IMG/VR virus record: IMGVR_UViG_3300048838_000238
Coordinates: 32,001-96,000 of that record
DNA length: 64,000 nucleotides
Strand: one strand, 5' to 3'
Origin: a virus
Under the pieces are notes generated by a model that did not search any database, was not told the origin of the DNA, and was given only the letters and a program-made list of their open reading frames with translations. The translations under genes were made by a program, and so were the position numbers. The number at the start of each line of letters is the position of its first letter. Position 1 is the first letter of the stretch. This document shows, piece after piece, positions 4,955 through 64,000 of the stretch.

Positions 4955-5452
4955 TCGTCCCTTCTGGAGTCCCGTTCGTAGTCCGCTTTATCGGCGCGGT
5001 CTTCGTCGTGTAGGCGGCGTTGCTCGCGCTCGTCCGCTTCGTCTTCTGCGTTGGAGGTTCGCCAAGCGTCATAGCTTGCAGGTAGTCCGTCTTGCATCGA
5101 TCTTTACCTCAGTAGAGTTTCAGTGACAGCGGCATAAACCGCCGTTGCTCGCGTATGGTCCGTTAGGTCCGACAGGATCATCGGATGTGTAATGCTCTCC
5201 TGGAATTGCGTACCATCCGTCGCCGTCCGGGTGCGTTACCAATTCCGCCACAGTCCCACATCGCGTGATGCCTCTTGGCTTGTACGGCGCTCAAACTCGC
5301 GACACTAGGCACCGTATCTGCTATCTCGTCACTCGCACCAGATCTATGCTTTTAGCGTGACGTGATTTGAAAAAGTTGCGGGCCTTGGAATCGCACCAAG
5401 TTTGCTCTGCTTATGAGACAGAGAAGATGACTACACCTACCGCCCGCAATAA

Positions 5453-15500: not shown

Positions 15501-17087
15501 TCCGAAAACGTCTCCAGCGATCCGTCCGTTCGTGCCGCTGCCGACCAGTTTTTGTTGCAGCGTCCACGTCGATCCGGTGCGAGTAAATACAAAAGCCGCG
15601 CCGGCATCCGTCAAGGCGGTCGCGCCGGATGCGTCATAGTCCTGCCTTTGCGCGCCGACCACAATCGTGTCGCCAGAGATCGCCACCGACCACCCAAAGA
15701 AGTCGCCGCTCTGACGCCCGTTGGTGCCACTTCCTACGAGCTTTTGCTGCTTGGTCCATGTCGCTCCGCTGCGAGTGAATACATACACAGCCCCCGCATT
15801 GGCGAGAGAATCTTCGCCATCGGCGTCTAAATCTCCGTTGTACGCGCCAACGACCGCCGTGTCGCCGTCCACAGCGACCGCGAATCCGAAAGAATCGCTC
15901 GATTCGTCACTAACAAGTCGGTCCTGGTAAGCCCATGTCGATCCCTTTAAGAACACCACCGCCTCGTTGTCACCTCCAGCGACCGCAGTGTCGTCGTCAA
16001 TGTCGACGCCCGTGCCAAGTTGATCAGAGGCAGTCCTGTGCGGCGACGGCGCTACCAGCTTTTGTAAGTACCCAAGAGGCAGCGCTTCTTGAGTAGTCTC
16101 GATCTCAACGTCATATCCGCCGACGGTTAGACTTGCGCCGTCTCCGGTCATGGCCGCGACATTGGTTTCGGCCAACGCTTCCACAAACTCAACTGTCCAA
16201 GGTCCGCCGTCGGAGCCGGTGACTGTCACGTCAGACGCTACGCCGGCCGTCGTCGTACTGGGAACGACCGTTCCGCCTGTCGCATTGGAGTTATCGACCG
16301 TGACTTGCGTGCGGTTGGCGCGACCGAGGGACTTCTTGAAGGTGATTGTGATGGGGGTCGTATTTAGCGGTCCTCCGGCGCAGACGGCCTCATCGACTCC
16401 GATATTGCTCAGCGCTTCGAGTGCTGTTTCAAGGTTAGCGGCCGTCACATCGAAGGCGATCGTCGCGGCGGTCTGCCCCTCAAACGTCAAGTCAAATGTT
16501 CCTCCGGACGCGGTAGACGTCAGCGTCTGAACTTCGTTTGTGCCAGCGATATTCGATAGATCACACAGCGCATCGCGAACATCGTAGGCAGTAGCGTCAT
16601 AGGCGATGGCCGCTGTGACCTGTCCGTCGAATGTCAGTGCGAACGTGCCGCCTACCGCATCTGTATCCACGTCGATGTACTGAATCTCATTCTGCCCGGC
16701 CACGCCTTGCTGAGTGACTGTGACGACGACAGTCGCGACGATCGCATTGGACAGAGTCGCCGTGAAGGGTTTGCCGTCGTCCGGCCCGGTCAAAAGAATC
16801 GCCTCGATACCGTCGTCCCCGTCGTCGGATTCGTAGGTCATCTCGTTGAATTCGGCGATGTCTTCCGCGCCAGCGACCAGCGCCGCCAGCAGATTCGTCA
16901 TGGCGACTTGGTCGGTTGTCAGACTGGGCGCCGCGTCGATGTCGTCCTGCGTCAGCGTATAGGTGACGTCCTTGCGGTTGACGGTCGCGGTCCAGGTTTC
17001 GCCGACTTCCGCATCGACGATTACCCAGCGTTCGATTTGAGCCTTGGCCTGCGCGTCGCCGCGAAAACTGTTAATTACTTCGGGCAT
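12579..17087 (-). CDS. Large virion fibre/adhesin with FG-GAP propeller, 4 NEIQ repeats and a split FCCH-like domain
   Basis: About 7 FGxSVAISGDT..VGA...AGAAYVF repeats; 4 copies of NE(I/V)Q...GTFTLTF...AIA(F/Y)DA..V..ALEAL; C-terminal ISGITQASPAVVT...HGLSNG...TGYTAYSSAG. Confidence 0.8.
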   Translation of the reverse strand: MPEVINSFRGDAQAKAQIERWVIVDAEVGETWTATVNRKDVTYTLTQDDIDAAPSLTTDQVAMTNLLAALVAGAEDIAEFNEMTYESDDGDDGIEAILLTGPDDGKPFTATLSNAIVATVVVTVTQQGVAGQNEIQYIDVDTDAVGGTFALTFDGQVTAAIAYDATAYDVRDALCDLSNIAGTNEVQTLTSTASGGTFDLTFEGQTAATIAFDVTAANLETALEALSNIGVDEAVCAGGPLNTTPITITFKKSLGRANRTQVTVDNSNATGGTVVPSTTTAGVASDVTVTGSDGGPWTVEFVEALAETNVAAMTGDGASLTVGGYDVEIETTQEALPLGYLQKLVAPSPHRTASDQLGTGVDIDDDTAVAGGDNEAVVFLKGSTWAYQDRLVSDESSDSFGFAVAVDGDTAVVGAYNGDLDADGEDSLANAGAVYVFTRSGATWTKQQKLVGSGTNGRQSGDFFGWSVAISGDTIVVGAQRQDYDASGATALTDAGAAFVFTRTGSTWTLQQKLVGSGTNGRIAGDVFGFRVAISGDTIIVGAPFQDYDASGANLASNAGAAYVYLRTGSTWALQQKIVGSGTNGRVAGDRFGESVAIDGDTAIVGAPRQQYDEAGANALTEAGAAYVYLRTGSTWALEQKLVGSGTNGRLAADVFGISVAVEGDMAIVGAFGQDYDAAGANLLSGAGAAYTFTRSGTTWSLADKLVGSGTNGRVAGDQFGLSVAITGTVVAIGAPAQDYDESGANSVASAGAFFIYSKGQNEIQQVSFDGTPEAGTFTLTFDSETTAAIAFDAAAVDVQLALEALTTPVPGDISVTGPNGGPWLVEFTGAYALTDVVLMTGDGSNLTGATVAVSTLQGGIAPVNEIQSIAFDKTPDAGTFTLSYSGQTTSVIAYNATAAAVDSALEALSNIGAGDVTCTGGPLPTLPVVVTFGSALAATNVEAITGDGELLTGASASEITQTTSQSPTGPNWGTEAANWTLGHAPTTGETMLLENSTVSLLYGIDFSAAPPAKYIQKSTYTGEVGLKQHTGLYYEYRPTELVLGDGADDGQLIIEIGEGSGSGSGLTRINTGKRETVIDVYTSSTSVDGSVPAINWRGTHPDNVIRIQRGKLGLGYFYGQVATVSQLWMSYQSSVSSDAEVTVGADAEIDEVYKTGGALICAASLGTLNNHGGDTLLKGTKEVTTIDATAGVIFAQTTGILGQYGSISGITQASPAVVTSYSSQLAIVLQEDSSGESFVTETTDANDAGTGDWDIFPAGVGADDACYFGLAQRFGKLAIDLGTAGAGTYTVTWEYWDGDEWVALAGISDGTTAFKAGTSSYDVTWTAPGLDWKKTSVNSSADLYFVRARRNGGTVSTDPVGDSARAFVPHGLSNGHSIRIAEVAGMLEVNQREFTIQVVDDYSFQLIGLDSTGYTAYSSAGTWGRVGSVQLARAAQLDFTTQIAERLVSAPIVAYGDSVEIIDLQDRITTLTQEDGEFAIQWYNTTRFGVLGGANKRHVRG

Positions 17088-50131: not shown

Positions 50132-53100
50132 TTACGGGTAAGACTCGACGATCCGGTTGGCAGGCTGCTGCTTGAGAAGCTGAAGAAACGCCTTGGCTTC
50201 ATCGGATAGCTCAGCGCCGGTATCGCTGTCGCCGCATCCCTTGCACTCGGCAACTAGGTCGGAAGCCGACTCCGCACCTGCCTGCGGCGATCCCGCACCT
50301 GCCTGCGGTTTGACCGCACCCGAGTGCCGTCCGGTCATTACCCAGTCGCGGAACTCGTCGATGTGCATGGCGCGGATCGGCCCAACCTTCCAGCCAGCGT
50401 CATAGCTTCCAAGGTACGCGCCGACGGCCCCGAGCTTGCTATTGAAGCCAAGGAACGCCTTGTGCTCGTCGAACTCTCCGGTCTGCTGATCGATCTGATC
50501 CATGACGAAGACAAGTTCGCTGTCTGCGTTCGGCCCGAGAAACACGTCCACGTAGTCTCCGTCAGCGCCGGCGAGCCCGATGACTTCCCCGTAGTGCGCG
50601 GCCATCGTGTTCGCCCACGGCTTGCCGTCCGCGCCGACGCCACGACGCACCGAGCCCTTTGGATTCTCGATCAGGATCGTCAGCCCGTGGAACTGGACAG
50701 CATGTTTCGGCAAGAGTTCAGGCGGTGTCTGCTCGCGGATCATCTGAGATTGCACCATCTCGGTAACTAGCAGCTCAATCTGCTGTCGCGACATAACCGG
50801 CCCCACGCCCTCCGGTGCGCCCAACTCCTTGCTGATACTCGGGAGGTCAGACATACCGGCGGCTGGCGCTGCGGTCTTAGGGTCGCGGATACCGGCTGGC
50901 GGTTGCCCGACCGGCGGCTGCTCGCCTGGCGGTTGTCCATGTGGCTTGCCGGTAGCCGCGTCGCGCTCCGCCTCTTCCTGGATATGCTTGTCCTCGACTT
51001 CACCGTCTAGTTCAGCTTGCGCCTGCCACGTCTTGCGGCTGAGTACCTTAGCGGCTTGGCGGATTTGCCGGATCTGCTCTTCCTCCAGCTTGTTCCTCTC
51101 GTTGATCGGCGGCGCTTCGATCTGCAAGTCGATCGTCCGCTTGAACTCGCGCCATGATTTCTGGCCGGGCGCGAATCCGAACCGCTCGAACCGCCCGGCG
51201 TGGTAGTTAAACAGCAAGACTTTCCAGAAGATTTGGCGGTAATACTGTTTGCGCATTCCTTGCTCGGATCGGCAACTAACGTGAAATCGAGAACCAGCGA
51301 CAATACCAGACGCCATGTTGTTATTCGAATCGTCGCCGGAAATTTGTCCTTCCGACATGCAATTTCCAGATACGGCAACGGTCCCGTGCCTGCGAGTAAC
51401 CATCGTTCCATTCGGAACCGAGACGCACCACACCTTGCCGACGTACTCGCTAATCTGGACGTTGTCGATCGGCGTAAATCCAACACGATCTGCGAGTCTG
51501 AACCTCACCCTCCATTGAGAGCCCTGTCGTCCCCGAACGGTGGCGACGTATCCGCAACGTACTGCAATCTCCTGGACGTCGTCGGCGAGCTGACGGCTTG
51601 CGGTGTGGTACTCCATAACATTGGCCGTTGCGTTACCTCCGTCGCCTTGCCATAGAGCATGTAGAAGCACCTCTAATAGCTCTGGAACCAGCATCTTGAA
51701 TTGGCTAGGGATTCTCTTGTTGCGCGACCCCTCTCCGCAATTCTCGCGAAGCCACAGGCATAGCGACTTGTTCAATACTTCCCATTGGTAAAAATCCGCA
51801 GTCATCTCAGTTTCGCCGATTGGACTTACCCGCTTTGTTCCGGCCGGCGTAATCGATTCAAAAACCTTGTGCCCCAGTAGGTGAATCGACGACTTGATAT
51901 CTTCAAATGCCTCGTTGCCGATTCCCTGGCAAAGGCCAACGCGGTAATTGGCTTGCTCTTTCTGAATTGTTGTCCATCCTTCCGACAGAAAGTGGCCAAT
52001 GAATTTAATGAACGGAATGGCATCAAAGCACTGGTCTTGATACTGACTCGCGTTCTCTCGGCGATATGTTTTATTGGAGACGATCTGCCTCACAGCTCCG
52101 GGAGTTACAGAAAACTCGCGTGCTGTCCCGGCGATTGAACTCCCAGACGAAACCAGTTCTCGAATACTTTCCGCCTTCTTGAAGTTAAGTCGCCCCCTTC
52201 CGTCGACGCTTGGTATCGTGATGCTTTCAGGCTTCCAGCCCTCTTCGCAAGCCATCGCAGTAGGAATAGCGTATTGTCGATGGCGATTCCCTTCGACAAG
52301 ATCCCACGCCGGATAGAACCTCCCGACGTCGAATACACGATCACGGCCCCGTGGCGTCAGCAAATACATGCGATGGTCTGGAGTTACCATCATGTCGACT
52401 TTCGCGTTCTTGACACGGACCATCGGCCCCGCGTAGTCGTAAATATGGATCTTCGTAGGTGCCTGGAATTCAAGTTTTCCAGTCTTTTGATTCATCGTTC
52501 CGATGCGATCATCGCTTGAAAGCTTGTCATATTCCTTCCACCCACTATCCGTTAAGCACTCCGTATCCGTATCGTGGCACCATCGCACAGCCACTTGCCG
52601 CAAGATCCCCTGGACAACGTCCAAGAATGCAGAGCCGCGTTCATGGCCGGTCGGACCCGGTTGGTATTCCATCCCCTCCGAGATGTGCTTATGCGTCCCT
52701 GGTGGGTGGTGGCGCTTCGAGACTTCGCGGGTGCCGTTCTGGCCATAGACGTTTTGCTCGTAATCCGCGTTGTTGCGGACCATCGATTCGACTTGGTCTT
52801 TACTGGTGCCCTTGACGTGCTGAATGATGTAGGCGATCGCGGCCTGCTCGGCTGCCGCTTCCCCTGTGTTTTCCAGGATGCGCGATTGCTGGAGAATCCA
52901 CTTCCACACGGGGTAGAAGTCTGTCATCCCACGCTTCACGTTCTGGAATGAATTGCGCTTGCTGTGCTCGACATAGAGCTTCGGCAAGTAATCCCGTGTC
53001 CCGGTGTCCCATTGAACGCAGTAGCCGATGACATCTACCACGTCGTGATCTGGCGTATGCAGTCCGAACGTGCAATTGTCGGCGTGTTCGCGCACAATGC

Positions 53101-53764
53101 CGAACTTCTCATAGAGCGTGTCGTCGTCCAGCGGTAGATTACCGGTGTCCGTGACGTACTCGGGTTCGATCACGCGAGCTTTGACGCGCCCCGCTTGGTT
53201 CGGATGCAAGCCCAGGAACGTCTCGCCGTCCGCTAGATCGCGGTTGTAGAGTTCCTTGTCGAGGTTACCTGTGAACTTGTTGTCCTCGTCGAACTCGTCG
53301 ATCACGTCTTGGACTTCTTCTAGCAGTCCGTCCGGTGTCTGCTTGCCGCGCCTCGCAATGGCCTTATAGATGTAGCCGTCGCCGATCACGTAGTCCGTGA
53401 GCGTCTTGACGATGCCTACCCCGACGGATTCTGCGGTTGTGACCAGTCGCGCGAAGGCGCGTTGCTGCCGCAGGTCTTCCTCGGTCATCACGAACGGGGC
53501 GTTATTGCCGTCGCGGCGCTCGGTCAGACCGCCCATCGCCAGCCCGCCGCCGCCGAAGCCGCCGTTCGCACCTCCCCAGAAATTCGGCAGCCAATCCATG
53601 CGATTGACGGTCTTGATGGCGCTCTCGGATATGCCGAGTTGCCGTTCCAGACCTTGCTTCTTAACGCTCAGTTCGAGGTCGCGGACTTGCCGCTCCAGGG
53701 TTGCCGAGCCGCCGTTATCCGACCCGCTGGCTGCGCCACCTGACTTTTTCCTACGTCGCGACAT
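50132..53764 (-). CDS. Portal protein with an intein and a C-terminal inorganic-pyrophosphatase-like domain
   Basis: After TerL; DYVIGDG, DGETFL, VIEPE, KRG..D and NMAS portal motifs; intein; IENPKGS..., HYG, GADGD.VDVFLG and FDEHK. Confidence 0.85.
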   Translation of the reverse strand: MSRRRKKSGGAASGSDNGGSATLERQVRDLELSVKKQGLERQLGISESAIKTVNRMDWLPNFWGGANGGFGGGGLAMGGLTERRDGNNAPFVMTEEDLRQQRAFARLVTTAESVGVGIVKTLTDYVIGDGYIYKAIARRGKQTPDGLLEEVQDVIDEFDEDNKFTGNLDKELYNRDLADGETFLGLHPNQAGRVKARVIEPEYVTDTGNLPLDDDTLYEKFGIVREHADNCTFGLHTPDHDVVDVIGYCVQWDTGTRDYLPKLYVEHSKRNSFQNVKRGMTDFYPVWKWILQQSRILENTGEAAAEQAAIAYIIQHVKGTSKDQVESMVRNNADYEQNVYGQNGTREVSKRHHPPGTHKHISEGMEYQPGPTGHERGSAFLDVVQGILRQVAVRWCHDTDTECLTDSGWKEYDKLSSDDRIGTMNQKTGKLEFQAPTKIHIYDYAGPMVRVKNAKVDMMVTPDHRMYLLTPRGRDRVFDVGRFYPAWDLVEGNRHRQYAIPTAMACEEGWKPESITIPSVDGRGRLNFKKAESIRELVSSGSSIAGTAREFSVTPGAVRQIVSNKTYRRENASQYQDQCFDAIPFIKFIGHFLSEGWTTIQKEQANYRVGLCQGIGNEAFEDIKSSIHLLGHKVFESITPAGTKRVSPIGETEMTADFYQWEVLNKSLCLWLRENCGEGSRNKRIPSQFKMLVPELLEVLLHALWQGDGGNATANVMEYHTASRQLADDVQEIAVRCGYVATVRGRQGSQWRVRFRLADRVGFTPIDNVQISEYVGKVWCVSVPNGTMVTRRHGTVAVSGNCMSEGQISGDDSNNNMASGIVAGSRFHVSCRSEQGMRKQYYRQIFWKVLLFNYHAGRFERFGFAPGQKSWREFKRTIDLQIEAPPINERNKLEEEQIRQIRQAAKVLSRKTWQAQAELDGEVEDKHIQEEAERDAATGKPHGQPPGEQPPVGQPPAGIRDPKTAAPAAGMSDLPSISKELGAPEGVGPVMSRQQIELLVTEMVQSQMIREQTPPELLPKHAVQFHGLTILIENPKGSVRRGVGADGKPWANTMAAHYGEVIGLAGADGDYVDVFLGPNADSELVFVMDQIDQQTGEFDEHKAFLGFNSKLGAVGAYLGSYDAGWKVGPIRAMHIDEFRDWVMTGRHSGAVKPQAGAGSPQAGAESASDLVAECKGCGDSDTGAELSDEAKAFLQLLKQQPANRIVESYP
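51362..52579 (-). mobile_element. LAGLIDADG-type intein (406 aa) in the portal
   Basis: W|CHDTDTECLTDSGW N-splice; VTPDHRM block B; IGHFLSEG and LHALWQGDG; VWCVSVPNG...SGN|C C-splice. Confidence 0.92.
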
Positions 53765-54518: not shown

Positions 54519-56639
54519 CTAACCGAATCTCGGCTTCTCCATCGTGCCCTTGGACCAGTGAAGGCATACGGCGAACGCGGTTCCAAGCGGCAAAGAGTCG
54601 CCGTGTTCCATGATATAGCCGCCCGAACTCCGCTCTTTGATTTCCAGCGAACACAACTCCCCGAACAGATCACGATCGGTGTACAAGTCCATTAGATGCT
54701 GTCGAGTCTTTGCCAACAGCGTCGTGGCGGACTTGGCGCGGTTGGTATTATCCATCGGGAACGGATAAGTAATCATCCCGACGCTTCTCAGGAGACCGGC
54801 CAGATCATCGCACTGCGTCGGATCGTACGCGATGCCGAGACACCGGAGCCGCTTGCCGTGCGTCATCACGTGCGCCGCGATCTCGGACACGTCCACCCTC
54901 TGGGTGTCAGGCGTTCGCTGCCACCGCTGAGCGTGCAATATGACGATACGCTGTCGCTGGTCATCCGTTCCCATCACCACAAACGCGGCGTCGGTCAAGG
55001 TCCGGTTGCAGAAGAGCGCCCCGACTGCGGCGTTGTACGGGTGACGATCTTCAATCCAAGGACCGTCCAGCACGGCCATCGCCTCCAAGTCCGCTGGTTC
55101 GACTCGGATAAACGATTGCCGCATGAGCCGCCGGTACATGCCCGAAGCTGCGTCCACCATATCGTCATGTGTGCCGTTGGGAAATAGCTCGTGCTCCGCG
55201 ATGAACTTATCCGTCCACTCGTCCTCGACAACGTACACTTCACCGTTTTCAACGGCGATTGAATACGATTCGGCGCGTTGTGACTTGCTACCGCGTGGAT
55301 GCTCGGTATCGAACCGGAGCCCCTTGAGTGCGGGCGTGGTCATGGCGGTTTGATATTTGTTGTCCTCTTCGATAACCGTCTGGACTAGCGCGCCGTAGTC
55401 GCGGTCATCTTCCGAAGATGTACTGGCGATGGAGCTTACGACTCCACGAGGGGACGCCTGTTCGTGCTTAACGTCCACGATGTAGACCTTGCGCCCGCAC
55501 CGGCCACCGAGAACGCCAGCCGTTGGGTCGCCGGTGACGGTCTGGGATGTGTCCCAATAACGAACCAGTTCATCGAACGACGCTGGCAGTTCGCTCCTTG
55601 CGATCCTCTCGAACTTGTCGACCTTAAAGAATCCGCCTTCATTCGGCGATGGGCGCTGTTGAAACTGACCGGCCCGGCCGTATTCCCCAAGCGGCTTGCC
55701 GATCCGATTAACGGTGGCTTCGCTCATGTAGTTCGGGTCGATCAACTGCCCTTCTTCGGTGCGAGGATCGAACTGCCGAGAGTACGATATGAACGGGTGA
55801 TTCCGCTCGAATCGCATCGGGAAGCACAGGTGGACGTAGCCGTAATCTTCTAATTCGTTGGCGATGATATGCCCGCTCAAGTCATCCTGACCGAGTCGCT
55901 GCATATCGACGACCCGAGACACGTCTCGGGTGGCACCGCGAGTAGGCATTTCGCGAGTCCACCAACTGATAACCTCTTTCAGCTTGGCCTTACTTTCCAG
56001 CCGTTGCGGGTTGTGCGCGTCGTCCACGACGATGCGGTCTGGGTGCTGTCCGGTTGCACCGGTGCCGGATGTTCCAGCACTGCGAAAGCCGCCCCTTGTC
56101 GTGTTGTATAACGTCCGCTGATTCTGGTCGTGCGACAGCGCAAAGCGGTCCCCCCAATGGCCTTGATACCACGCGCTATCCATCAGCGTCCGGCATTTCA
56201 GGGAATCACGAGTCGACAACTCTTGGTCGTAGGAGAAGAACATCCAACGGGTATCGGCGCGGTCGCGCGGCCCCCACTCCCACATTGGCCAGAACACGCA
56301 GCACGATAGCGACTTGGTAAATCCCGGCGGGACGTTAATCAGCAGATTCTTGATCTGCCCCAACGACACCGCTTCCAAGTGTTCCGCCACACAGTCCACG
56401 ATCCAGGTCCGCTTGAACGGGACTGTCGGTTCCAGGACTTTCCAGCCCTGTGCCATGAATTCGATCAGCCGCGACTCCGCCAACTCCCGATTCGTCTGGA
56501 AGTCCTGCATCTGCTTCAGGACATCCGCCCTCTGCCAGCAAGGCATCTGCTCCAGGAGGAAGGCTGATGCCGAGGCGCTGAGCGAGAAGAGTAACTCGAT
56601 TTCGTCGTTGCTCAACGGAGACGTAGTGCTCATGGACAT
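54519..56639 (-). CDS. terL: Terminase large subunit with an extra C-terminal RNase H-like domain
   Basis: LLINVPPGFTKS (Walker A), IVVDD (Walker B), QFQQRP, RYWD and HDDMVDA, then about 200 extra aa. Confidence 0.92.
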   Translation of the reverse strand: MSMSTTSPLSNDEIELLFSLSASASAFLLEQMPCWQRADVLKQMQDFQTNRELAESRLIEFMAQGWKVLEPTVPFKRTWIVDCVAEHLEAVSLGQIKNLLINVPPGFTKSLSCCVFWPMWEWGPRDRADTRWMFFSYDQELSTRDSLKCRTLMDSAWYQGHWGDRFALSHDQNQRTLYNTTRGGFRSAGTSGTGATGQHPDRIVVDDAHNPQRLESKAKLKEVISWWTREMPTRGATRDVSRVVDMQRLGQDDLSGHIIANELEDYGYVHLCFPMRFERNHPFISYSRQFDPRTEEGQLIDPNYMSEATVNRIGKPLGEYGRAGQFQQRPSPNEGGFFKVDKFERIARSELPASFDELVRYWDTSQTVTGDPTAGVLGGRCGRKVYIVDVKHEQASPRGVVSSIASTSSEDDRDYGALVQTVIEEDNKYQTAMTTPALKGLRFDTEHPRGSKSQRAESYSIAVENGEVYVVEDEWTDKFIAEHELFPNGTHDDMVDAASGMYRRLMRQSFIRVEPADLEAMAVLDGPWIEDRHPYNAAVGALFCNRTLTDAAFVVMGTDDQRQRIVILHAQRWQRTPDTQRVDVSEIAAHVMTHGKRLRCLGIAYDPTQCDDLAGLLRSVGMITYPFPMDNTNRAKSATTLLAKTRQHLMDLYTDRDLFGELCSLEIKERSSGGYIMEHGDSLPLGTAFAVCLHWSKGTMEKPRFG

Positions 56640-56910
56640 GGTGTACTTCCGCCGGATTCTTGCTCTGCTCTTCCTTCATTTGCAGGCTTTCGCGTTGGAT
56701 GTTGTTCCGATCGGCTGCGATCAATACCCGCGCGGCTGCGATCTGGCTGCGCTCCGACTCCCCGGCTACTGCCACATTGGTCATCTTTGCCATGATGGCT
56801 TGCCGGACCAACGGCGAGATTGGCCAGCCGTTCTTGATGGCGCGCTCGATAAGCTGCATATCGCTGCGGCTGGTCTTGTCGTCCGGCGATGGCGCGGCCT
56901 GATCTGTCAT
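56335..56910 (-). CDS. terS: Terminase small subunit (putative)
   Basis: Helical protein (RAIKNGWPI, RSQIAAARVLI) just upstream of and overlapping TerL. Confidence 0.6.
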   Translation of the reverse strand: MTDQAAPSPDDKTSRSDMQLIERAIKNGWPISPLVRQAIMAKMTNVAVAGESERSQIAAARVLIAADRNNIQRESLQMKEEQSKNPAEVHHVHEHYVSVEQRRNRVTLLAQRLGISLPPGADALLAEGGCPEADAGLPDESGVGGVAADRIHGTGLESPGTDSPVQADLDRGLCGGTLGSGVVGADQESAD

Positions 56911-57464
56911 GCACCAGCATCCCACGAATGGCCACAATGTGGACAGGTAATTACTTCCGCCGCACCGGCCGCCGGCGTATCTGGCGGCAAGTCTTCTGGG
57001 ATATCGAGCACTGCCAGCAGTCCGTTGTCTTCGGCTAGCTGCGTGAGCATTTCCGCTAGAGCGCCGTTACCGGTCTGAACTGATCTCAGCAGTTCATCGA
57101 GCTTCTGCGCATCGGCTTCCGCCATAGCGGCAAGAGGATCTTTGGTAAGAGTGGCCTTGCGGGCTTCCGCCTCGTCGAAGTCGGTCACGTTGACTTCGAT
57201 CTCGCAATCGGGACCGTACTTTGCCAGCAGGTGTTTCTTCCGCAAATGCCCGTCACAGAGCTTGATTCGTCCCGGCTCCGGTTCGAATGTATCGGGGTAC
57301 GAATACCAACCTAGCTCATCGATCGCGCCCTCTAAAGCATCTTGCTGAGCTTGCGGATGCGTCCGAAAGTTCCATTCGGCATCCTCGATATCGGCGACCC
57401 GTACTAGACGGATACCGATGTTCCGTGTCCGCAGTTCCGGCTTGGCTTCCGTGCCTTCTGCCAT
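56907..57464 (-). CDS. ParB-like N-terminal domain protein with a C-terminal zinc ribbon
   Basis: WNFRTHP..Q..AL..AI.ELGW, DGHLR and TCPHCGH. Confidence 0.8.
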   Translation of the reverse strand: MAEGTEAKPELRTRNIGIRLVRVADIEDAEWNFRTHPQAQQDALEGAIDELGWYSYPDTFEPEPGRIKLCDGHLRKKHLLAKYGPDCEIEVNVTDFDEAEARKATLTKDPLAAMAEADAQKLDELLRSVQTGNGALAEMLTQLAEDNGLLAVLDIPEDLPPDTPAAGAAEVITCPHCGHSWDAGA

Positions 57465-57625: not shown

Positions 57626-58384
57626 TTAAACAGCCGAGACTCGCCCCTTACCTGCTTGTGCCAGCAGCCTGTTAATCACGTCTTGGTAGTATTCTTTTTC
57701 CCACTCGGCGCGGCCTCCGCCGGCGCCGTGGGTGTCTCCGATCTCGGCCACCCGCAGTCTTTCTCGTGGCCAACGGCCGCCTCCCAGCATCGCATAAGCA
57801 GGGTGAATAGGCAGGTCGTGGATGGCTAGATATCCGAATACATCGGCCGTGTTCCATCGTCCAATCGGCGAGCAGCCTTTAGGGCTGTTCAGTCCCCAGC
57901 GTAGCATCCGAATCCTCCTGCCGCTTGACTCATCTGCGCGGATACCAAGGATGTGCCGTCCGCTGTATGGCTTCTCGAATCTCCGAATCTCCGCGTACCA
58001 TATCTTGTCGGTGAGTTTATCGACGTCCTGATGAGGAGCGTTGCGATCGATGCCGACGTAGTCGACGTCAACTTCCTGATACAGTTGCCCAGGGAATTGG
58101 CTGAAGTAGGCATCGCGAACCGCGTCACAATCCGGGTTATGGTTTGTCGGGCGCAAGTGCATTAACGGGACGTGACGTGCCACTTTCCACAACAGATGGG
58201 CAATGACAACGCTATCTTTGCCCCACGAAATTCCTGCGTAGCAATGGCCGTCGCCGATGAACTCAGTGATCGCGCCGATGGATTGCCGTTCACGACCATC
58301 AACCTCTCTAAGACGATCGCTTTCGGCGTATTCTTTCCACAATAGTAGGTCGCCCGGACGATGCCGTTCACTCTGTATCAGCAT
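57626..58384 (-). CDS. cysH: CysH-like PAPS reductase family protein of the type IV-B kind
   Basis: ISWGKDS PP-loop, GIRADES..R, PI.RW...DVFGYL..HDLP.HPAY; no C-terminal ECGLH. Confidence 0.85.
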   Translation of the reverse strand: MLIQSERHRPGDLLLWKEYAESDRLREVDGRERQSIGAITEFIGDGHCYAGISWGKDSVVIAHLLWKVARHVPLMHLRPTNHNPDCDAVRDAYFSQFPGQLYQEVDVDYVGIDRNAPHQDVDKLTDKIWYAEIRRFEKPYSGRHILGIRADESSGRRIRMLRWGLNSPKGCSPIGRWNTADVFGYLAIHDLPIHPAYAMLGGGRWPRERLRVAEIGDTHGAGGGRAEWEKEYYQDVINRLLAQAGKGRVSAV

Positions 58385-58958
58385 CAATCATTTCCCATGC
58401 GGTTGAATACTGGACGTTTGCAAACAATGATGCAATGCCGGTAAGTTGCTTGTACCGATGAACGGAATCCAAATCGAGGCCGAGCTTCTCCGCAACCTCT
58501 TCCTCGCTCATGCCTTGCTGAATTAAGGCACGAACGACGTCGGCATCCAAGTCTACCTGATGAAATCCGCGAGCGTTATTAAATTGAACTGTCGCAGCCA
58601 TCCTCTTGGCCATCGTGTGCGGCAAACAAACAACTGGAATGTGCGACATATCCAGCCAGTCAGGTCCAGCAATTAAGTGCCGGTGAAACCCGTCTATAAT
58701 CACGAACTGGTCAGCCTCATCGCTCCAGATCGTGACCACGGGGAAGCAGAATCCGTTTTCAATGATGGACGTCTTTAGCAACTCCATTTTGTCGGGAGGA
58801 ACGGAATTGGGGTTGTACGTGTTCGCGACTACCAGTCGCCTATTGACGAGCATGGTTTCAATGCACGGGATCGGGATGTCGATCGCCAGCGATGACGACT
58901 TAATAGCAACAGACTCACGTCGATACCTTCTATAGTCGTCGGCTGTTTCGATAATCAT
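58368..58958 (-). CDS. ibrB: IbrB-like ParB/Srx domain protein
   Basis: NTYNPNSVPP.KM.LL..SI..NGF..PVV, IIDGFHR and TVQFNNARG.H; C-terminal HTH. Confidence 0.85.
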   Translation of the reverse strand: MIIETADDYRRYRRESVAIKSSSLAIDIPIPCIETMLVNRRLVVANTYNPNSVPPDKMELLKTSIIENGFCFPVVTIWSDEADQFVIIDGFHRHLIAGPDWLDMSHIPVVCLPHTMAKRMAATVQFNNARGFHQVDLDADVVRALIQQGMSEEEVAEKLGLDLDSVHRYKQLTGIASLFANVQYSTAWEMIDADTE

Positions 58959-60079
58959 AGGACGCTCCGGTAGTAGGCGAGCAACTGATCTCTCGGATCT
59001 TCCGCGTTGTCGACTGGGAGGTTGTTCTCGTAATCGTTCAGAAGAAGTTGTCGGCACTGCTGACGCGCCACGTACTCGTTATTGCGATGCTTAGAGAATC
59101 GCGACCTAAAGACATTGACCGCCATTGAGTCTTGGTGAGTTGCCAACAGAAAGTCGCGGTAGACCATCCATGAGGTGTAACCCTTTGGCAGCTTCCGTGC
59201 GGCGAACATCTTGCTGTTCTTCCCGGTCTCTTGAGCGAACGACACGCCATTCACTCTTTTGAGAAGCTTGGCGTATGTCTTCGGTTCAAACTCCGGCAGT
59301 TCGCAGATACTCTTGAACGACCGCTCGTGAATAAGCGAAGAGCAACGAATCTCGGTGATGCTCATGCCCTTTTTGAACTGCATGTCGTATATTTTTGAGT
59401 ACAGAAGTCCTTCGTCGTGGATGAACTTCCACACGTCATGGAAGTTCCAATCGTAGATCGGATAGACGGATGCCGAGTTGCGGTTCTTTTTGGTCGCGTA
59501 GTAGATGCGTTCGCCGTGTCTCTCGACAGGGTTCTTGCTCACTGCCCGGTAACGGTTTGGACCCTCAGTCGCGCGCAGTCCGACCAGAAACGCGGTATCA
59601 GTAAAACAACTCTCAAAGTTGTCGATCACGTCATAGAACCCGAACCCCTTACGTTTATCTCGGACGGTCGGATTGCGACCCCACATCGGCGAGACAATAT
59701 TCCCATTGCCTTTCGGTCGCATCCAAATTTTATGTTTGCCTTCCTCCCAGCACTTGAGCTGTGTTTCGGATTGCGACGTGGCGTTCGTTAAATGAAACTC
59801 GACTTGCAGCCACAGTCGATTCGTCCACTCGGGTGATAAGTTCATCAGCCATTCAACTTGGTCGATCGTCGACTGATAAACCACCTCTTCGTCCAGAAAA
59901 AACAGACCGACTTTCTGTTGTCGACGCTCCGCCTCTTGGACGGCCAGATAGGCAAGAACCGTGCTGTCCTTGCCGCCGCTAATGGAAACAATGACGTTTT
60001 CAAATAGATCAAACGTCTTGGCGATCCTCCGCCGCGCCGCTTCAACCACGGATTCGTCAAGATATTTTTGCGTAAGCAT
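58955..60079 (-). CDS. ibrA: IbrA-like PAPS reductase family protein (DUF3440-type C-terminus)
   Basis: SISGGKDS, FLDEE, VGLRATE..NR, YPIYDW...DVW, EPKTY..L..RV.G and LLNDY. Confidence 0.85.
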   Translation of the reverse strand: MLTQKYLDESVVEAARRRIAKTFDLFENVIVSISGGKDSTVLAYLAVQEAERRQQKVGLFFLDEEVVYQSTIDQVEWLMNLSPEWTNRLWLQVEFHLTNATSQSETQLKCWEEGKHKIWMRPKGNGNIVSPMWGRNPTVRDKRKGFGFYDVIDNFESCFTDTAFLVGLRATEGPNRYRAVSKNPVERHGERIYYATKKNRNSASVYPIYDWNFHDVWKFIHDEGLLYSKIYDMQFKKGMSITEIRCSSLIHERSFKSICELPEFEPKTYAKLLKRVNGVSFAQETGKNSKMFAARKLPKGYTSWMVYRDFLLATHQDSMAVNVFRSRFSKHRNNEYVARQQCRQLLLNDYENNLPVDNAEDPRDQLLAYYRSVL

Positions 60080-60902
60080 CGGCTACCCGCAGACTCCAAT
60101 CGCACGTTCTCTGGATGTACCAATGATCCACCTTCAATTCAGTGGTAAGAAACGGAATCCGTGCCTGTCCCGTCAAACTAAGGAAGTCGATCAGGTCAAT
60201 ATAGTTGTGGCACATCTCAAAGACGGTTCGTTCTCCTGCGATGGAGTCGTCTTTGAATGTGACAAGATATGGTAGCTTCATCCGGTTATTGCGCCCCACG
60301 AGCTGTCGATCCCCGGCCACGGCAGCCTTGTCAGCTCCGCCGATAAGATGCAAGTTACGCGGGATCGTGTGCGGGTCTTTAAGGCCGATGCCGTCAAACA
60401 ATTGCTGCCGCTGCTTCTTATACTCCGCTATCGTCTTACTTGATACGGCAACACGTTCTTCAATGAAGACCGGGTGCCTATCGATGACACGGACATCAAC
60501 GTGCGACTTGAACTCGTCCGACCATCCACATCCCTTGAACCGGCTATTGGTGTCAAAGTCCATCAGAATCATCAGGTCGTTAATTGAGTCGATGATCGGC
60601 AGCCACTGGAATACCAACTGATGACGAGTTTGTGACAGGAAGTGGCGAATGCAATTGTAAGTCAAGTCGCTTCGGTTCTGAGTTCTCAGACACTCGTTGA
60701 CGACGACCAGAGTGTTTGAATCGATCTCTCTAAGCAACCGGTAGAATACCTTGTACTTGATGATCTGATGCCAATCGACAAACTCACAGCCATCCAGTTC
60801 AAACCAAAACTTACTTGGCGACAGCACGACCACTTTGCGGCCTTCTGCGTGTTCTCGCACGATCTCAGCCTTATCGGAATTGTGAACGCCAAGATAGATC
60901 AT
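60057..60902 (-). CDS. Degenerate SF2/SNF2-like ATPase-fold protein
   Basis: LVVVNECLR (DExH-like with Asp to Asn) and LPIIDSINDL (TPxxNxxxDL-like); no Walker A seen. Confidence 0.5.
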   Translation of the reverse strand: MIYLGVHNSDKAEIVREHAEGRKVVVLSPSKFWFELDGCEFVDWHQIIKYKVFYRLLREIDSNTLVVVNECLRTQNRSDLTYNCIRHFLSQTRHQLVFQWLPIIDSINDLMILMDFDTNSRFKGCGWSDEFKSHVDVRVIDRHPVFIEERVAVSSKTIAEYKKQRQQLFDGIGLKDPHTIPRNLHLIGGADKAAVAGDRQLVGRNNRMKLPYLVTFKDDSIAGERTVFEMCHNYIDLIDFLSLTGQARIPFLTTELKVDHWYIQRTCDWSLRVADAYAKIS

Positions 60903-61492
60903 TGAATCGCCTTCAACCGCTTCGCACATTCCAATGATCGCTTCTCATTCAACTCGATAGCTGCAACTCGCATCCCGACGTCCATGAACTTCTTGAGCAT
61001 CTTTCCCTTGCCAGCGCAAACATCAGCCACTGTCCGACAGCCCTGCCGAAGGAACCATCCAGATAATGCCGTCGTTGCGTCGCGGCTATCCTTCAGTTGC
61101 GGTGCGATCGATGGATCGCCTTGCCTTGAAGCAACGATCTGATAGTTGTTTCCGGCGTAGTAGTTGGTTTGCCATCCGACTTGGCTTCCATATCCAACGT
61201 CATACAAAGCGTTCATCCAATGGCGAGACTCAGGAACGCCGGTCTTCAGGTAAACCCATGCTGGATTAGAGCGTTCGACAACGCCAATCAGTTCTTCGCA
61301 GAACCGCGACCAGTCTTGCTCAACTCCAGATTTACGACTCCAGTACGTCAGATTCCCTTGCCTCCAAGGAGGATCGATGGCAAGTAGATCGGCATTCAGA
61401 CTCGTGCCGTAAAAACTGCCGCAGTAGACCTCGGATCGATCACTTCTGCCAGTAAACCGAGTCCCACTTGGTTCTCTCAGCAATGACATCAT
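60899..61492 (-). CDS. Amino (N6-A/N4-C) nucleic-acid methyltransferase-like protein, beta-class motif order
   Basis: IDPPW catalytic motif precedes the VADVCAGKG SAM motif and AIELN. Confidence 0.75.
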   Translation of the reverse strand: MMSLLREPSGTRFTGRSDRSEVYCGSFYGTSLNADLLAIDPPWRQGNLTYWSRKSGVEQDWSRFCEELIGVVERSNPAWVYLKTGVPESRHWMNALYDVGYGSQVGWQTNYYAGNNYQIVASRQGDPSIAPQLKDSRDATTALSGWFLRQGCRTVADVCAGKGKMLKKFMDVGMRVAAIELNEKRSLECAKRLKAIQ

Positions 61493-61865
61493 TTGGGATT
61501 GAGTAGACAAGGTGCGTCGTCCCCATCTTGAACTTTTTGAGGTGAACAAAACCAAGGGATTCAAATAGCGATGGTCGGAATGCAAAAGTATCTAGCTTCT
61601 TGGCGGACGTGTTTTGGCAACCGTACGCAAACCGGTGCTCAACAAGCAGCTTACCGAGCCCCTGGCAGCGAAACTCTGGTGCCACCCAGCATCCGCACAA
61701 GCGTACCGCGATGCTGTTTAGCTTTCGAAGGCAACCGATAGCAGGCTTTCCGTCGACAACAAAGATGATGTCTCGTTGCCGGATCGATACGCGATCGCGT
61801 TTTGCTTTCGCGACCAAGCCGCTTGCGACTGCAAGATCAAATGGTATCTGAAGAACCTTCAACAT
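61440..61865 (-). CDS. GNAT family N-acetyltransferase
   Basis: WVAPEFRCQGLGKLL acetyl-CoA motif and FESLGF. Confidence 0.85.
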   Translation of the reverse strand: MLKVLQIPFDLAVASGLVAKAKRDRVSIRQRDIIFVVDGKPAIGCLRKLNSIAVRLCGCWVAPEFRCQGLGKLLVEHRFAYGCQNTSAKKLDTFAFRPSLFESLGFVHLKKFKMGTTHLVYSIPNDVIAERTKWDSVYWQK

Positions 61866-62533
61866 GGAACTACGATCTCTCGGAAGCGATCCGGGTGCCA
61901 CCTCGGCGGCTGGCAGGCTCCGAACCACCGCTTGAATCCGGTCAAGTCAGGCGGCAATTTGTCACACCACGGCAAGGCACGCATAAGCAGTGTCCCGGCC
62001 TCGCATGGCGCGAACCAACTCCAGTCGTGTTCGACTTCCACGGCAGTCCATTCACTCACCCGACCAAATCCTTGAGAGCGTTTATGGCCGATGGAATGGA
62101 CCGAGTCAAGCAGGGACAACAGCGTCCGTCGCTCCGAGCCCCCGACGAACCACACCACGCGATCACAGTCTCTTAGTCGCAACGGCAAGCGATAGCTCTT
62201 GTACGTGGCATTTCCGACTGCTACACACAGTCTCTTGTCTGGCGACAAGACGTCGGCATATTCGACAGCCAGCCGCTTGGCGAATCTTTCCACCCGATCC
62301 CTGGCGGGCGACAGGATCGGCGCCGAACATCGCGGGATATTATTCACTCCGCCTATCGCGCCTCGCAAGCACGGAATATGAATCTCTCCCGGCGGCGGTG
62401 CCGGTGCGCTCCGAACAATGCGGCTTGCCAAGCCTAGCCGCTGGCTCATCTCGTACTCCAGAAGTGAATCTAGGTACGGGGCGTCGCCAGCCAGCGGGCT
62501 CGACAGGCAGGCCGTGACTTTCCAGTTAGCCAT
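61859..62533 (-). CDS. csf3: Type IV CRISPR-associated Csf3 (Cas5 family RAMP)
   Basis: LDSLL, YKSYRLPL, G-loop IGHKRSQGFGRV.EW, LMRALP and PPRW; coupled to csf2. Confidence 0.85.
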   Translation of the reverse strand: MANWKVTACLSSPLAGDAPYLDSLLEYEMSQRLGLASRIVRSAPAPPPGEIHIPCLRGAIGGVNNIPRCSAPILSPARDRVERFAKRLAVEYADVLSPDKRLCVAVGNATYKSYRLPLRLRDCDRVVWFVGGSERRTLLSLLDSVHSIGHKRSQGFGRVSEWTAVEVEHDWSWFAPCEAGTLLMRALPWCDKLPPDLTGFKRWFGACQPPRWHPDRFREIVVPC

Positions 62534-63419
62534 TAGATGCCGCCTTGCTCGTTTTGCGTCCGCGCGGCGACACCGTGACGAACGCCTCGTTTAGCCATTG
62601 AACGCACTCGTCACGATTGGCGTCGACGTGCGACACGTAATCCAGCAACAGCGAATCGTCACCGTCATCCATGTTCACGAACGACATCCTCAGTCTGCCA
62701 TGCCCTATCCGTGATTGCCCTCCGATCGTTCCCCCTGAATCCTGCCACAACCGCAGAGACAATCGCAGGCAGCCCAACTCCAGTTCATTGACGTGCTTCA
62801 ATACGAAGCCGTGATGAAACACCGCCCCTCGACCAACGGCTTGGCCGGAGTAGATCATCAGACTGGAGGTGTCTCCGTCTTGCGTCTCAGCTTGTCCCAA
62901 CTTCGCAGCGTCACCACGGGTGTACTGATATCCGCTCGCGAACCGCTCGGCTGACCAGAGTCTTGCCGTCGGAAAGTCCGCGATCATACTGGCTAACGAC
63001 TCGCGGTTCTCTTCACACACTAGTACCCCGCGCCACACGTCCATCGATCCGGCAAGTATCTGGTTCGGCAGCGATCCTCCGCACAATCGCAGCAACGGAA
63101 ATAATCGATGGCAATCGGCGATGCGACGGGTATTCTCTTGCGCCGTCGATTGTGTGAGGTTCCCACCGTGCAACAGGAAGTTCAGTTGCGGAAGCGACAG
63201 TTTGCCTCGCAACCCCAGGCGATCAATCAGCCACATCGCGCCGGGCTCACGAACGAACCGGTGACGGATTGCGTTGCCGCTCAGGAACGGGACGTAAGCC
63301 ACGCCACAAGGAGTCGTCACCGGTTCGCGGGCTACAATCGCCTCGTTACCAGCCGTCCCGCTGGCGTGCGTAATGGGCGAGATGGCTTTCGATAGGCAGT
63401 GAATCGTGTACGTTTTCAA
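62526..63419 (-). CDS. csf2: Type IV CRISPR-associated Csf2 (Cas7 backbone)
   Basis: SPITH, VPFLSGNAIRH, LLHGG.L, FPLLRLCGG, YTR.D, MIY..Q and G-loop IGGQSRIGHG. Confidence 0.9.
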   Translation of the reverse strand: MKTYTIHCLSKAISPITHASGTAGNEAIVAREPVTTPCGVAYVPFLSGNAIRHRFVREPGAMWLIDRLGLRGKLSLPQLNFLLHGGNLTQSTAQENTRRIADCHRLFPLLRLCGGSLPNQILAGSMDVWRGVLVCEENRESLASMIADFPTARLWSAERFASGYQYTRGDAAKLGQAETQDGDTSSLMIYSGQAVGRGAVFHHGFVLKHVNELELGCLRLSLRLWQDSGGTIGGQSRIGHGRLRMSFVNMDDGDDSLLLDYVSHVDANRDECVQWLNEAFVTVSPRGRKTSKAASNG

Positions 63420-63871
63420 GCGGCACCTCCGATCTTGTCTTTCCAGCGGCGACGAGCCAACACCAAAACGGGAATGAGATGTGTCGTCAGATACTTCAGC
63501 CAGTCGGCGCGTGACTCTGCCGGTAGGTCGTAAAGCGATTGCAAAGCGTTAACGAAGTCGTCATCCGCGACCGCCTTGGCTGGCTCTGCTTTGATATGCT
63601 CGCAGACGTGCTGTACGAACAGATCCAAATCGCCGTCGATTGTCTTCGCATAGGCCGACTGGATCGCGGTGGCGATGCGGTCCCAGAGCGTGAGACGGTC
63701 CAGGTCAGACCCAAAGATTCTCGGCAGCGACGCGCAGAAATCGACGGCCAATTCCTTGGCGACGCTGACAAACCATTCCGGCTTGTCGGCGTCATAGTCG
63801 ATCAGCCCGGCTAATTCTTGTCGCAGTCTCTCGGTATCAAGAGTCGGCAGTGGCGGTGGCAGGGTAGTCAT
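63416..63871 (-). CDS. cas11: Type IV-B small subunit (Cas11/Csf4-like)
   Basis: 151 aa all-alpha protein (LWDRI...AI) directly upstream of and overlapping csf2. Confidence 0.65.
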   Translation of the reverse strand: MTTLPPPLPTLDTERLRQELAGLIDYDADKPEWFVSVAKELAVDFCASLPRIFGSDLDRLTLWDRIATAIQSAYAKTIDGDLDLFVQHVCEHIKAEPAKAVADDDFVNALQSLYDLPAESRADWLKYLTTHLIPVLVLARRRWKDKIGGAA

Positions 63872-64000
63872 CGTATTTTCTTTCCTGGTTGTATTGGTAA
63901 TGTTGCGGCCAATTCCGGATCAATCCCTTTCCTTATCCGAGACGTCAACGTAGCTTTCCGAACGACACACAAGGGATGGCGAGACAATTCCGTAACGGTA
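63868..64000 (-). CDS. C-terminal end of a probable HNH-endonuclease-type protein (partial)
   Basis: Manual translation TVTELSRHPLCVVRKATLTSRIRKGIDPELAATLP...KIR*; resembles the C-terminal helical module of phage HNH endonucleases; ATGA overlap with cas11. Confidence 0.5.
   Translation of the reverse strand, partial: TVTELSRHPLCVVRKATLTSRIRKGIDPELAATLPIQPGKKIR

Follow-up and report, generated by a model that had tools for sequence, protein, structure and literature searches.

We analysed a 64,000-nucleotide stretch of viral DNA (hereafter the window; bases 32001-96000 of the 105,996-base virus record IMGVR_UViG_3300048838_000238), in which cas genes and modifying-enzyme genes form a string on the minus strand at the right end, and the remainder of the genome was added to the analysis. 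We found that this locus is almost certainly a complete type IV-B CRISPR-Cas effector operon (csf1-cas11-csf2-csf3-cysH) that carries an inserted cassette of enzyme genes. The best overall explanation, to which we assign a probability of roughly 55%, is that the type IV-B operon and the cassette act together in the covalent modification of a nucleic acid, most likely DNA.

Type IV-B core and inserted genes

Nine open reading frames (ORFs) run head to tail on the minus strand from 63871 down to 57626, and all nine genes named in the initial annotation, from cas11 to cysH, were located in the order and at the positions given there. Direct reading of the sequence shows ATGA overlaps where an HNH gene ends and cas11 begins (63871-63868), where the methyltransferase gene ends and the SNF2-like gene begins (60902-60899), and where the IbrA gene ends and the IbrB gene begins (58958-58955). 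The remaining junctions are overlaps of 4 to ~50 nt; hence, the earlier claim of an overlap at every junction holds. Scans for consensus promoters and terminators gave nothing above shuffled controls, so it is the gene overlaps that argue for one operon. The analysis supports the initial description of a type IV-B set that is carried by a phage, has no array and is tightly strung together with genes for modifying enzymes.

We found that all four Cas proteins match type IV profiles (E values of 5e-57 to 4e-26, with 2.3e-80 for Cas7). Single-sequence searches of Pfam and NCBIfam gave only weak Cas signals, whereas the curated PADLOC Cas profiles match decisively. The small subunit Cas11 (63416-63871, 151 aa) matches typeIV_Cas11 (E 2.4e-30, profile positions 4-137 of 141), and in 37 related viral loci its gene is flanked by csf1 and csf2; no sequence match to the solved Cas11 chains was found, even with a family profile. 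The Cas7 backbone subunit Csf2 (62526-63419, 297 aa) matches typeIV_Cas7 over its full length (E 2.3e-80) and phrog_22746 (E 1e-67). With a profile built from 53 diverse relatives, Csf2 also matches the Csf2 of the IV-B structure 7JHY from Mycobacterium sp. JS623 (E 7e-32, again at full length) and the Cas7c of PDB entry 11fs (E 5.5e-36), which, going by its name, is probably type IV-C. The Cas5 protein Csf3 (61859-62533, 224 aa) matches typeIV_Cas5 (E 4e-26), and its single-sequence matches are weak (TIGR03116, E 5e-4; Csf3 of PDB 7XFZ, E 0.023). Hence, the profile check proposed for Csf2, Csf3 and Cas11 came out in favor of the type IV assignment for each of them.

csf1 seemed absent only because the window stops short of it. 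The gene for this large subunit (250 aa) lies just past the edge on the minus strand, at L002:8745-9497, which corresponds to 64745-65497 in extended window numbering, and its product matches typeIV_Cas8 (E 5e-57) and TIGR03114 (E 2.4e-11), a model matched by 31 of the 31 family members. The CxxC...CxxC zinc finger is invariant across the Csf1 family, and the family profile finds the solved Csf1 chains in the PDB (E 2.6e-6). Hence, the type IV-B core is complete.

We found no CRISPR array in the whole 105,996-bp phage, and profiles of Cas1, Cas2, Csf4/DinG and Cas6 gave nothing in the whole genome, with control genomes positive; the absence of cas1, cas2, cas6, dinG and arrays first noted for the window therefore extends to the genome. 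Some 90 related loci also had no arrays, every candidate array being coding tandem repeats.

As far as sequence can tell, every defining feature of subtype IV-B is present. The operon has the same five genes in the same order as the IV-B reference, the Csf complex of Mycobacterium sp. JS623 (PDB 7JHY, PMC7937560). Like the reference, it lacks an array, Cas6, a helicase and adaptation genes, has a CysH-like PP-loop protein without the catalytic cysteine, and lies on a mobile element. Unlike the reference, it is in the genome of a lytic-type tailed phage, beside the terminase, and is interrupted by an HNH gene and a five-gene enzyme cassette. Its proteins also score far below the NCBIfam equivalog cut-offs (Csf2 has 30 bits against TIGR03115, where the cut-off is 130), yet they are strong on other curated type IV profiles.

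The interruption between csf1 and cas11 is a free-standing HNH endonuclease gene (304 aa, minus strand, L002:7868-8782, or 63868-64782 in extended numbering, with the 3' end at 63868-64000 in the window; phrog_374, E 1e-61), whose HEIDR...N...N motif is intact. Its GC content (0.48) is the lowest in the region, compared with 0.575-0.60 for cas11, csf2 and csf3. No related locus has a gene of this kind between csf1 and cas11; L034, the only one with room there (~1.5 kb), has no match to it, and the lone match among the relatives is in L049, ~3 kb upstream of csf1. Since the gene is sporadic in relatives and lowest in GC, it is best read as a mobile homing element that was inserted later between csf1 and cas11. 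Its candidacy as a Cas effector nuclease was judged unlikely on the same grounds, its absence from the cas strings of relatives and its GC.

The second interruption is best read as a cassette of five genes (GNAT, methyltransferase, SNF2-like, IbrA and IbrB) inserted between csf3 and cysH. The GC of this block (0.50-0.52) is below that of cysH (0.56) and of the cas genes, and the usual unit in relatives lacks both the cassette and the HNH gene; hence, both appear to be later insertions.

The first cassette gene (61440-61865) encodes a GNAT acetyltransferase-fold protein of 141 aa, counted from an inferred ATG start at 61865 (PF13508, E 3.3e-7, 31 bits with a cut-off of 27; PF00583, 22.2 bits with a cut-off of 20.7). 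The second (60899-61492) encodes a compact, putative DPPW amino-methyltransferase of ~197 aa whose start codon is uncertain. Its IDPPW motif precedes a VCAGKG motif near the C-terminus, so that motif IV comes before motif I, as in the beta-class order. This copy has no Pfam match, a homologue in locus L060 matches PF01555 below the cut-off (E 5.5e-5), and the nearest clusters in the language-model Atlas are phage N6_N4/MT-A70 methylases (0.96), which we take as a lead only.

The third gene (60057-60902) encodes a two-lobe protein of 281 aa with no family match. Its AlphaFold2 model (pLDDT 89.5, pTM 0.86) was searched with Foldseek, and the top hits were the ATPase cores of INO80, ISW1, CHD and SsoRad54 (E 2e-7 to 1e-5); almost all of the top 50 were SNF2 remodeller cores (E 2e-7 to 8e-5, probability 1.00, TM 0.27-0.62). 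The GxGKT and DExH motifs are not matched: the second glycine, the Ser/Thr and the Asp of the Walker motifs are absent. Hence, the protein is SNF2-like in fold and not a canonical SNF2 ATPase, and its original label of degenerate SNF2-like stands in both respects. A Zot-like P-loop reading of it (Atlas, 0.89) was dropped in favor of the SNF2 fold found by Foldseek. The family is strongly conserved at ECLRTQNR, DPHTIPRN and GRNNR and has more than 496 homologues in metagenomes; none was found among 50,697 GenBank phages.

The fourth gene (58955-60079) encodes an IbrA-like PP-loop ATP pyrophosphatase of 374 aa with PAPS_reduct (PF01507, E 2e-13) and DUF3440 (PF11922, E 8e-9) domains, which also matches phrog_2302 (E 1e-77). 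Its SGGKDS motif is invariant across 34 homologues, and IbrA-like proteins occur in 220 of the 50,697 GenBank phages. The fifth (58368-58958) encodes an IbrB-like protein of 196 aa, counted from the ATG at 58958, with a ParB/Srx domain (phrog_2159, E 5.8e-43; TIGR00180, E 1e-4) and a conserved DGxHR motif. The pair has the two domain architectures of known IbrA/IbrB (PAPS_reduct with DUF3440, and ParB), to which a role in activating prophage gene expression is ascribed, in the same adjacent, overlapping genes. Unlike known pairs, it has a SNF2-fold protein with it in every case and a methyltransferase in most, and it is linked to cas genes.

The operon closes with cysH (57626-58384), the signature accessory gene of type IV-B, which encodes a PP-loop protein of 252 aa (PF01507, E 4.7e-11). 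It is five genes away from csf3 here and directly after csf3 in most relatives. The SWGKDS motif is invariant and there is no conserved C-terminal (catalytic) cysteine, traits that have been published for Cas-linked CysH (PMC8175902). A PDB search with the single sequence gave nothing; a family profile found CysD and CysH (E 3e-13 to 1e-9), with TtuA among the matches.

Two further PAPS-reductase-like genes of the phrog_424 type lie upstream of the operon on the minus strand (L002:12812-13924 and 14358-15551), with a nucleoside 2-deoxyribosyltransferase-like gene between them (L002:13936-14385). SGGKDS is present in one of the two, and a canonical PP-loop is missing from the other. Counting IbrA and CysH, this phage encodes four highly divergent PAPS-reductase superfamily proteins within 14 kb.

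Recurrence of the cassette and the slot beside cysH

Related loci were collected with sequence patterns drawn from close relatives. A diverse Csf2 alignment was too variable for locus retrieval, and a closer set was used in its place; retrieval seeded with Csf2 gave 41 loci from viral contigs and 13 more from prokaryote assemblies. The latter come from metagenome-assembled genomes (MAGs) labelled Planctomycetota, Acidobacteriota, Spirochaetota, Bacteroidota, Firmicutes and others, and the nearest Csf2 relatives are in MAGs labelled Planctomycetota and Acidobacteria. The Csf2 family has 790 cluster representatives at E 1e-3 or better. We detected csf1, cas11, csf2, csf3 and cysH together in 30 of the 41 viral loci and 8 of the 13 MAG loci. 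Their order is kept except in L032 and L045, the genes are mostly adjacent, and most loci have no insert.

Among the 50,697 GenBank phages, a tblastn search with Csf2 found a single record, the actinobacterial Skermania phage SPI1 (KR011061.1, 32609-36242 of the record). This cultured phage has five consecutive genes of matching size, all annotated as hypothetical, and the match tested is the third, csf2 (27.7% identity).

We found that the slot between csf3 and cysH varies. Elsewhere it holds nothing, a small helix-turn-helix or unknown gene, a SpoU-family methylase, or an IbrA/IbrB pair. The SpoU-family (SPOUT) methylase gene lies there in four distinct sister phage loci (L016:12065-12466, L021:11534-12013, L027:10651-11064 and L022:11555-11977, the last assigned by tblastn similarity to the other three, with no Pfam match), and the CysH proteins of these loci form one clade. 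Locus L009 has the same layout as the operon described here minus the GNAT gene. A second IbrA/IbrB subfamily, without the SNF2-like gene, is also found inside the operon (L030, L036/L041 and L045), in the order IbrB-IbrA in L030 and between csf2 and csf3 in L045. Hence, the inserted genes co-occur with csf2 elsewhere, repeatedly and in different arrangements, and the condition named beforehand as refuting the initial reading, that they never do so, does not hold.

Retrieval with the SNF2-fold family alone gave 34 viral loci, and 33 of them extend far enough to score. The SNF2-like, IbrA and IbrB genes are together, in that order, in all 33; a methyltransferase gene flanks this module in ~22, on a side that varies, and a GNAT gene is beside it in four (L065, L092, L079 and L066). 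Profile searches of the ORFs placed csf1, csf2, csf3 or cysH within 7 kb of the module in 12 of the 33. These 12 loci show at least nine arrangements, with the module before the cas genes, after them, convergent with them or nested among them. Eight are nested, either between csf3 and cysH or between cysH and csf3, and the Csf2 proteins of the 12 are 24-61% identical to the one described here. Hence, what lies in this operon is one version of an autonomous module, widespread in uncultured phages, that has repeatedly been joined to type IV cas genes.

Some divergent type IV loci linked to the cassette encode Cas6-type domains (L060:3660-5534, L061:5061-5945 and L069:12595-13179; PF10040 at or just below threshold, and PF08798, the Cas6e family, at E 2e-9), with no array within 7 kb.

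The CysH and Csf2 trees differ. In the CysH tree, this phage, L009 and L030, all with IbrA/IbrB, group with L031 and L035 (support 92/96), and the SpoU-linked CysH proteins form a separate group (94/97). In the Csf2 tree, this phage is with L005 and L007, both without the cassette, and forcing the CysH group as a clade on that tree was rejected (p-AU 2e-51). Hence, the cysH end and its accessory genes have been exchanged among Csf lineages, as would be expected if CysH and the accessory enzymes cooperate and the Csf core is a more generic partner.

Proposed function and its alternatives

Given the repeated association of the module with type IV cas genes, often as a nested block, we read the Csf set and the cassette as working together, and some functional coupling of the two is probable. 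That the Csf ribonucleoprotein aids a modification of DNA is a more tentative proposal, somewhat less likely true than false. The initial suggestion that the complex guides or scaffolds acetylation, methylation or adenylation is likewise conjectural. The Csf ribonucleoprotein would bind nucleic acid, and the CysH-like and IbrA proteins, in which the PP-loop is retained, would form an adenylated intermediate, as in their superfamily. IbrB, through its ParB/Srx domain, and the SNF2-fold protein would engage DNA, a SNF2 fold implying a grip on the duplex, and the methyltransferase and the GNAT protein would add small groups to leave a covalent mark. The likeliest substrate would be DNA and the likeliest time around packaging. 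We infer the cooperation, the substrate and the chemistry, and our best guess for the last is ATP-dependent covalent DNA modification.

DNA as the substrate fits the location of the module, which adjoins packaging genes here, in L078 (where the terminase comes after cysH) and in Flavobacterium phage FCL-2 (where ParB and PAPS-reductase genes lie between terminase and portal). It also has precedents: DpdB, a ParB-like ATPase, acts with DpdA in DNA modification, and DndB with DndC pairs a ParB/Srx protein with the PAPS-reductase family (PMC12839542). More broadly, Dnd/Ssp phosphorothioation, type 4 BREX (BrxP) and the Dpd 7-deazaguanine system team a PAPS-reductase-family PP-loop enzyme with a ParB-superfamily protein, as in DndC/DndB, and in Dpd the ParB-like DpdB works with helicase-like partners (PMC12839542). 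Similarity to DndC (E 1.5e-6 across ~65 residues) and BrxP is weak here, neither a cysteine desulfurase nor the DndC cysteine pair was seen, and the genes belong to a phage and not to a host. A prediction of a complex of Csf1, Csf3 and CysH did not separate the real set from its controls, one of which scored as high.

Several results weigh against cooperation in DNA modification. About two thirds of the SNF2-like/IbrA/IbrB loci (~21 of 33) have no cas gene within 7 kb, so the cassette is not special to Cas loci, and most type IV-B loci have no cassette; each module can do without its partner. Accessory genes of phages tend to cluster and to be shuffled, and neighbourhood alone could reflect a shared insertion hot spot. 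The retrieval also gives counts that are not an unbiased census, with several loci near-duplicates. The SNF2-like family lacks canonical ATPase motifs (its Walker A is G-x5-K-x and its Walker B is V-V-N-E-C), and the same site in sister loci is occupied by the SpoU family, whose known substrates are RNAs, an argument for RNA over DNA.

The strongest competitor to cooperation is a chance or hot-spot mosaic, in which the IV-B/CysH set and the cassette are independent modules sharing a permissive site near the packaging genes, and the cassette is a stand-alone DNA-modification or anti-restriction unit. The separate lives of the two modules favor it, as do the lower GC of the cassette, read as later arrival, the uptake of a selfish HNH gene by the same operon, and the IbrA/IbrB-like pairs near terminase and portal in cas-less phages such as FCL-2. 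Against this, the 12 of 33 independently sampled cassette loci that have type IV cas genes have them from very different lineages, with eight nested and in several orders; a second IbrA/IbrB subfamily is nested likewise; the CysH subtypes correlate with the accessory gene and are transferred along with it; and a stop/start overlap is found at every junction. We judge a mosaic without cooperation unlikely, and chance juxtaposition is hard to sustain even with counts that are not a census.

An RNA-directed function would have the Csf filament assemble on host or phage RNA (crRNA, tRNA or transcripts), with the CysH-like protein and the accessory enzymes modifying or sequestering that RNA, for example as an anti-CRISPR sponge or for RNA protection. 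The SpoU genes between csf3 and cysH in sister phages are a reason to keep RNA under consideration as the substrate, and GNAT and MT-A70-like enzymes are able to act on RNA. The PP-loop enzymes TilS, MnmA and TtuA act on tRNA bases, and the CysH profile has TtuA among its matches. Furthermore, the only IV-B complex that has been purified is an RNA-loaded Cas7/Cas11 filament with heterogeneous, non-CRISPR RNA (PMC7937560). The precedents for the SNF2 fold and for the ParB/Srx and PAPS-reductase pairing, however, act on DNA (PMC12839542), the genome has a single tRNA gene and yielded no structured RNA family, and a sponge of such complexity was judged unlikely by Pinilla-Redondo et al. (PMC7038947). 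As to the crRNA sponge put forward in the initial annotation, the present results weigh on neither side. We consider a function directed at RNA improbable, and more so than the mosaic.

Least probable of all, and in our view very unlikely, is RNA-guided interference against competitors or the host, with the SNF2-fold protein as helicase, the HNH protein as nuclease and guides from a host array. The closest models are IV-A (DinG) and the RecD-like variant (IV-D of Pinilla-Redondo et al.), in which a type IV effector is likewise paired with an accessory protein of helicase fold (superfamily 1 or 2). Helicase acquisition has recurred in type IV, and class 1 systems have also been joined by HNH nucleases (PMC11656645, PMC12669027); in this phage the HNH gene stands between csf1 and cas11 in translational coupling, and Cas6-like genes occur in some cassette-linked type IV loci. 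Unlike in IV-A and IV-D, the accessory protein of this phage has a SNF2-like helicase fold in which the ATPase motifs are degenerate, has modifying enzymes alongside, and comes without an array or Cas6 in this phage and without arrays in the ~90 related loci. In addition, no similar HNH gene lies within related cas strings, and the low GC of the gene and its one distant match, in L049, fit a homing element.

Genome setting and significance

The virus record (~106 kb) is rated complete by CheckV, and the phage is tailed. Downstream of cysH, after a 160-nt gap, a second ParB-like gene (56907-57464, minus strand; phrog_620, E 4.5e-10) lies outside the operon, and the large terminase gene (54519-56639, minus strand) comes after it. 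The same ParB gene is downstream of the module in L008 and L009. The large terminase has relatives in 351 phage records, all with less than 40% identity. Between these two genes, the ORF taken as the small terminase subunit (56335-56937, minus strand) overlaps the large terminase ORF by ~300 nt in its longest form and has no family match, PHROG included. Hence, from the ParB-TerS-TerL block that the initial annotation placed next to the operon, ParB and TerL stand and TerS has no family match behind it.

The same phage encodes a portal/MuF protein of 1210 aa (50132-53764, minus strand), with portal similarity at the N-terminus and similarity to MuF-like minor-head proteins at the C-terminus; an internal stretch of it matches an unrelated family. 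The sole tRNA gene is a tRNA-Met with anticodon CAT (5375-5448, minus strand), and an Rfam search of the whole genome gave no structured RNA family. A 27-nt unit (nine codons) repeated in tandem makes up the 'direct terminal repeats' at both record ends (L002:17663-17996 and L003:1-216), and it may lie within a coding region; hence, the terminal redundancy may be an assembly effect and not a packaging feature.

Type IV-B systems in phages and prophages are on record (PMC7038947, PMC11656645, PMC10541130), as are occasional ADP-ribosyltransferase or N6-methylase neighbours of IV-B (bioRxiv 10.1101/270033). Our literature search, which was incomplete, found no description of IV-B linked to IbrA/IbrB, a SNF2-fold protein or SpoU, and the function and full architecture of IV-B were still called unclear in September 2026 (PMC13676074).

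Among CRISPR-Cas subtypes, IV-B is the main one still lacking a known biological role, and its pairing with the cassette is a testable lead. To our knowledge, linkage to cysH-like genes has so far been the only clue to that role. The clues added here are a large phage IV-B clade, a variable slot beside cysH that is repeatedly filled by nucleic-acid-modifying enzymes, and a specific conserved partner module (SNF2-fold, IbrA, IbrB and methyltransferase) whose cognate CysH travels along. For the IbrA/IbrB family, and for a conserved SNF2-fold family with hundreds of metagenomic members and none in cultured phages, they also provide a functional context for the first time. The question can now be reduced to bench work with defined genes and mutants, and SPI1 could become an experimental model for phage type IV-B.

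A more speculative idea, which we hold to be rather unlikely, goes beyond cooperation in DNA modification. IV-B might be a CRISPR-derived, RNA-loaded platform that delivers a covalent modification instead of cleavage, with the Csf filament exposing a site, on DNA or on the bound RNA, for the CysH-like protein to adenylate. Interchangeable accessory sets (SNF2-like/IbrA/IbrB plus methyltransferase and GNAT in this phage, the SpoU methylase in its sisters) would then complete or diversify the mark. If this is true, IV-B would serve phages as an epigenetic writer, either to protect themselves or to silence their rivals.

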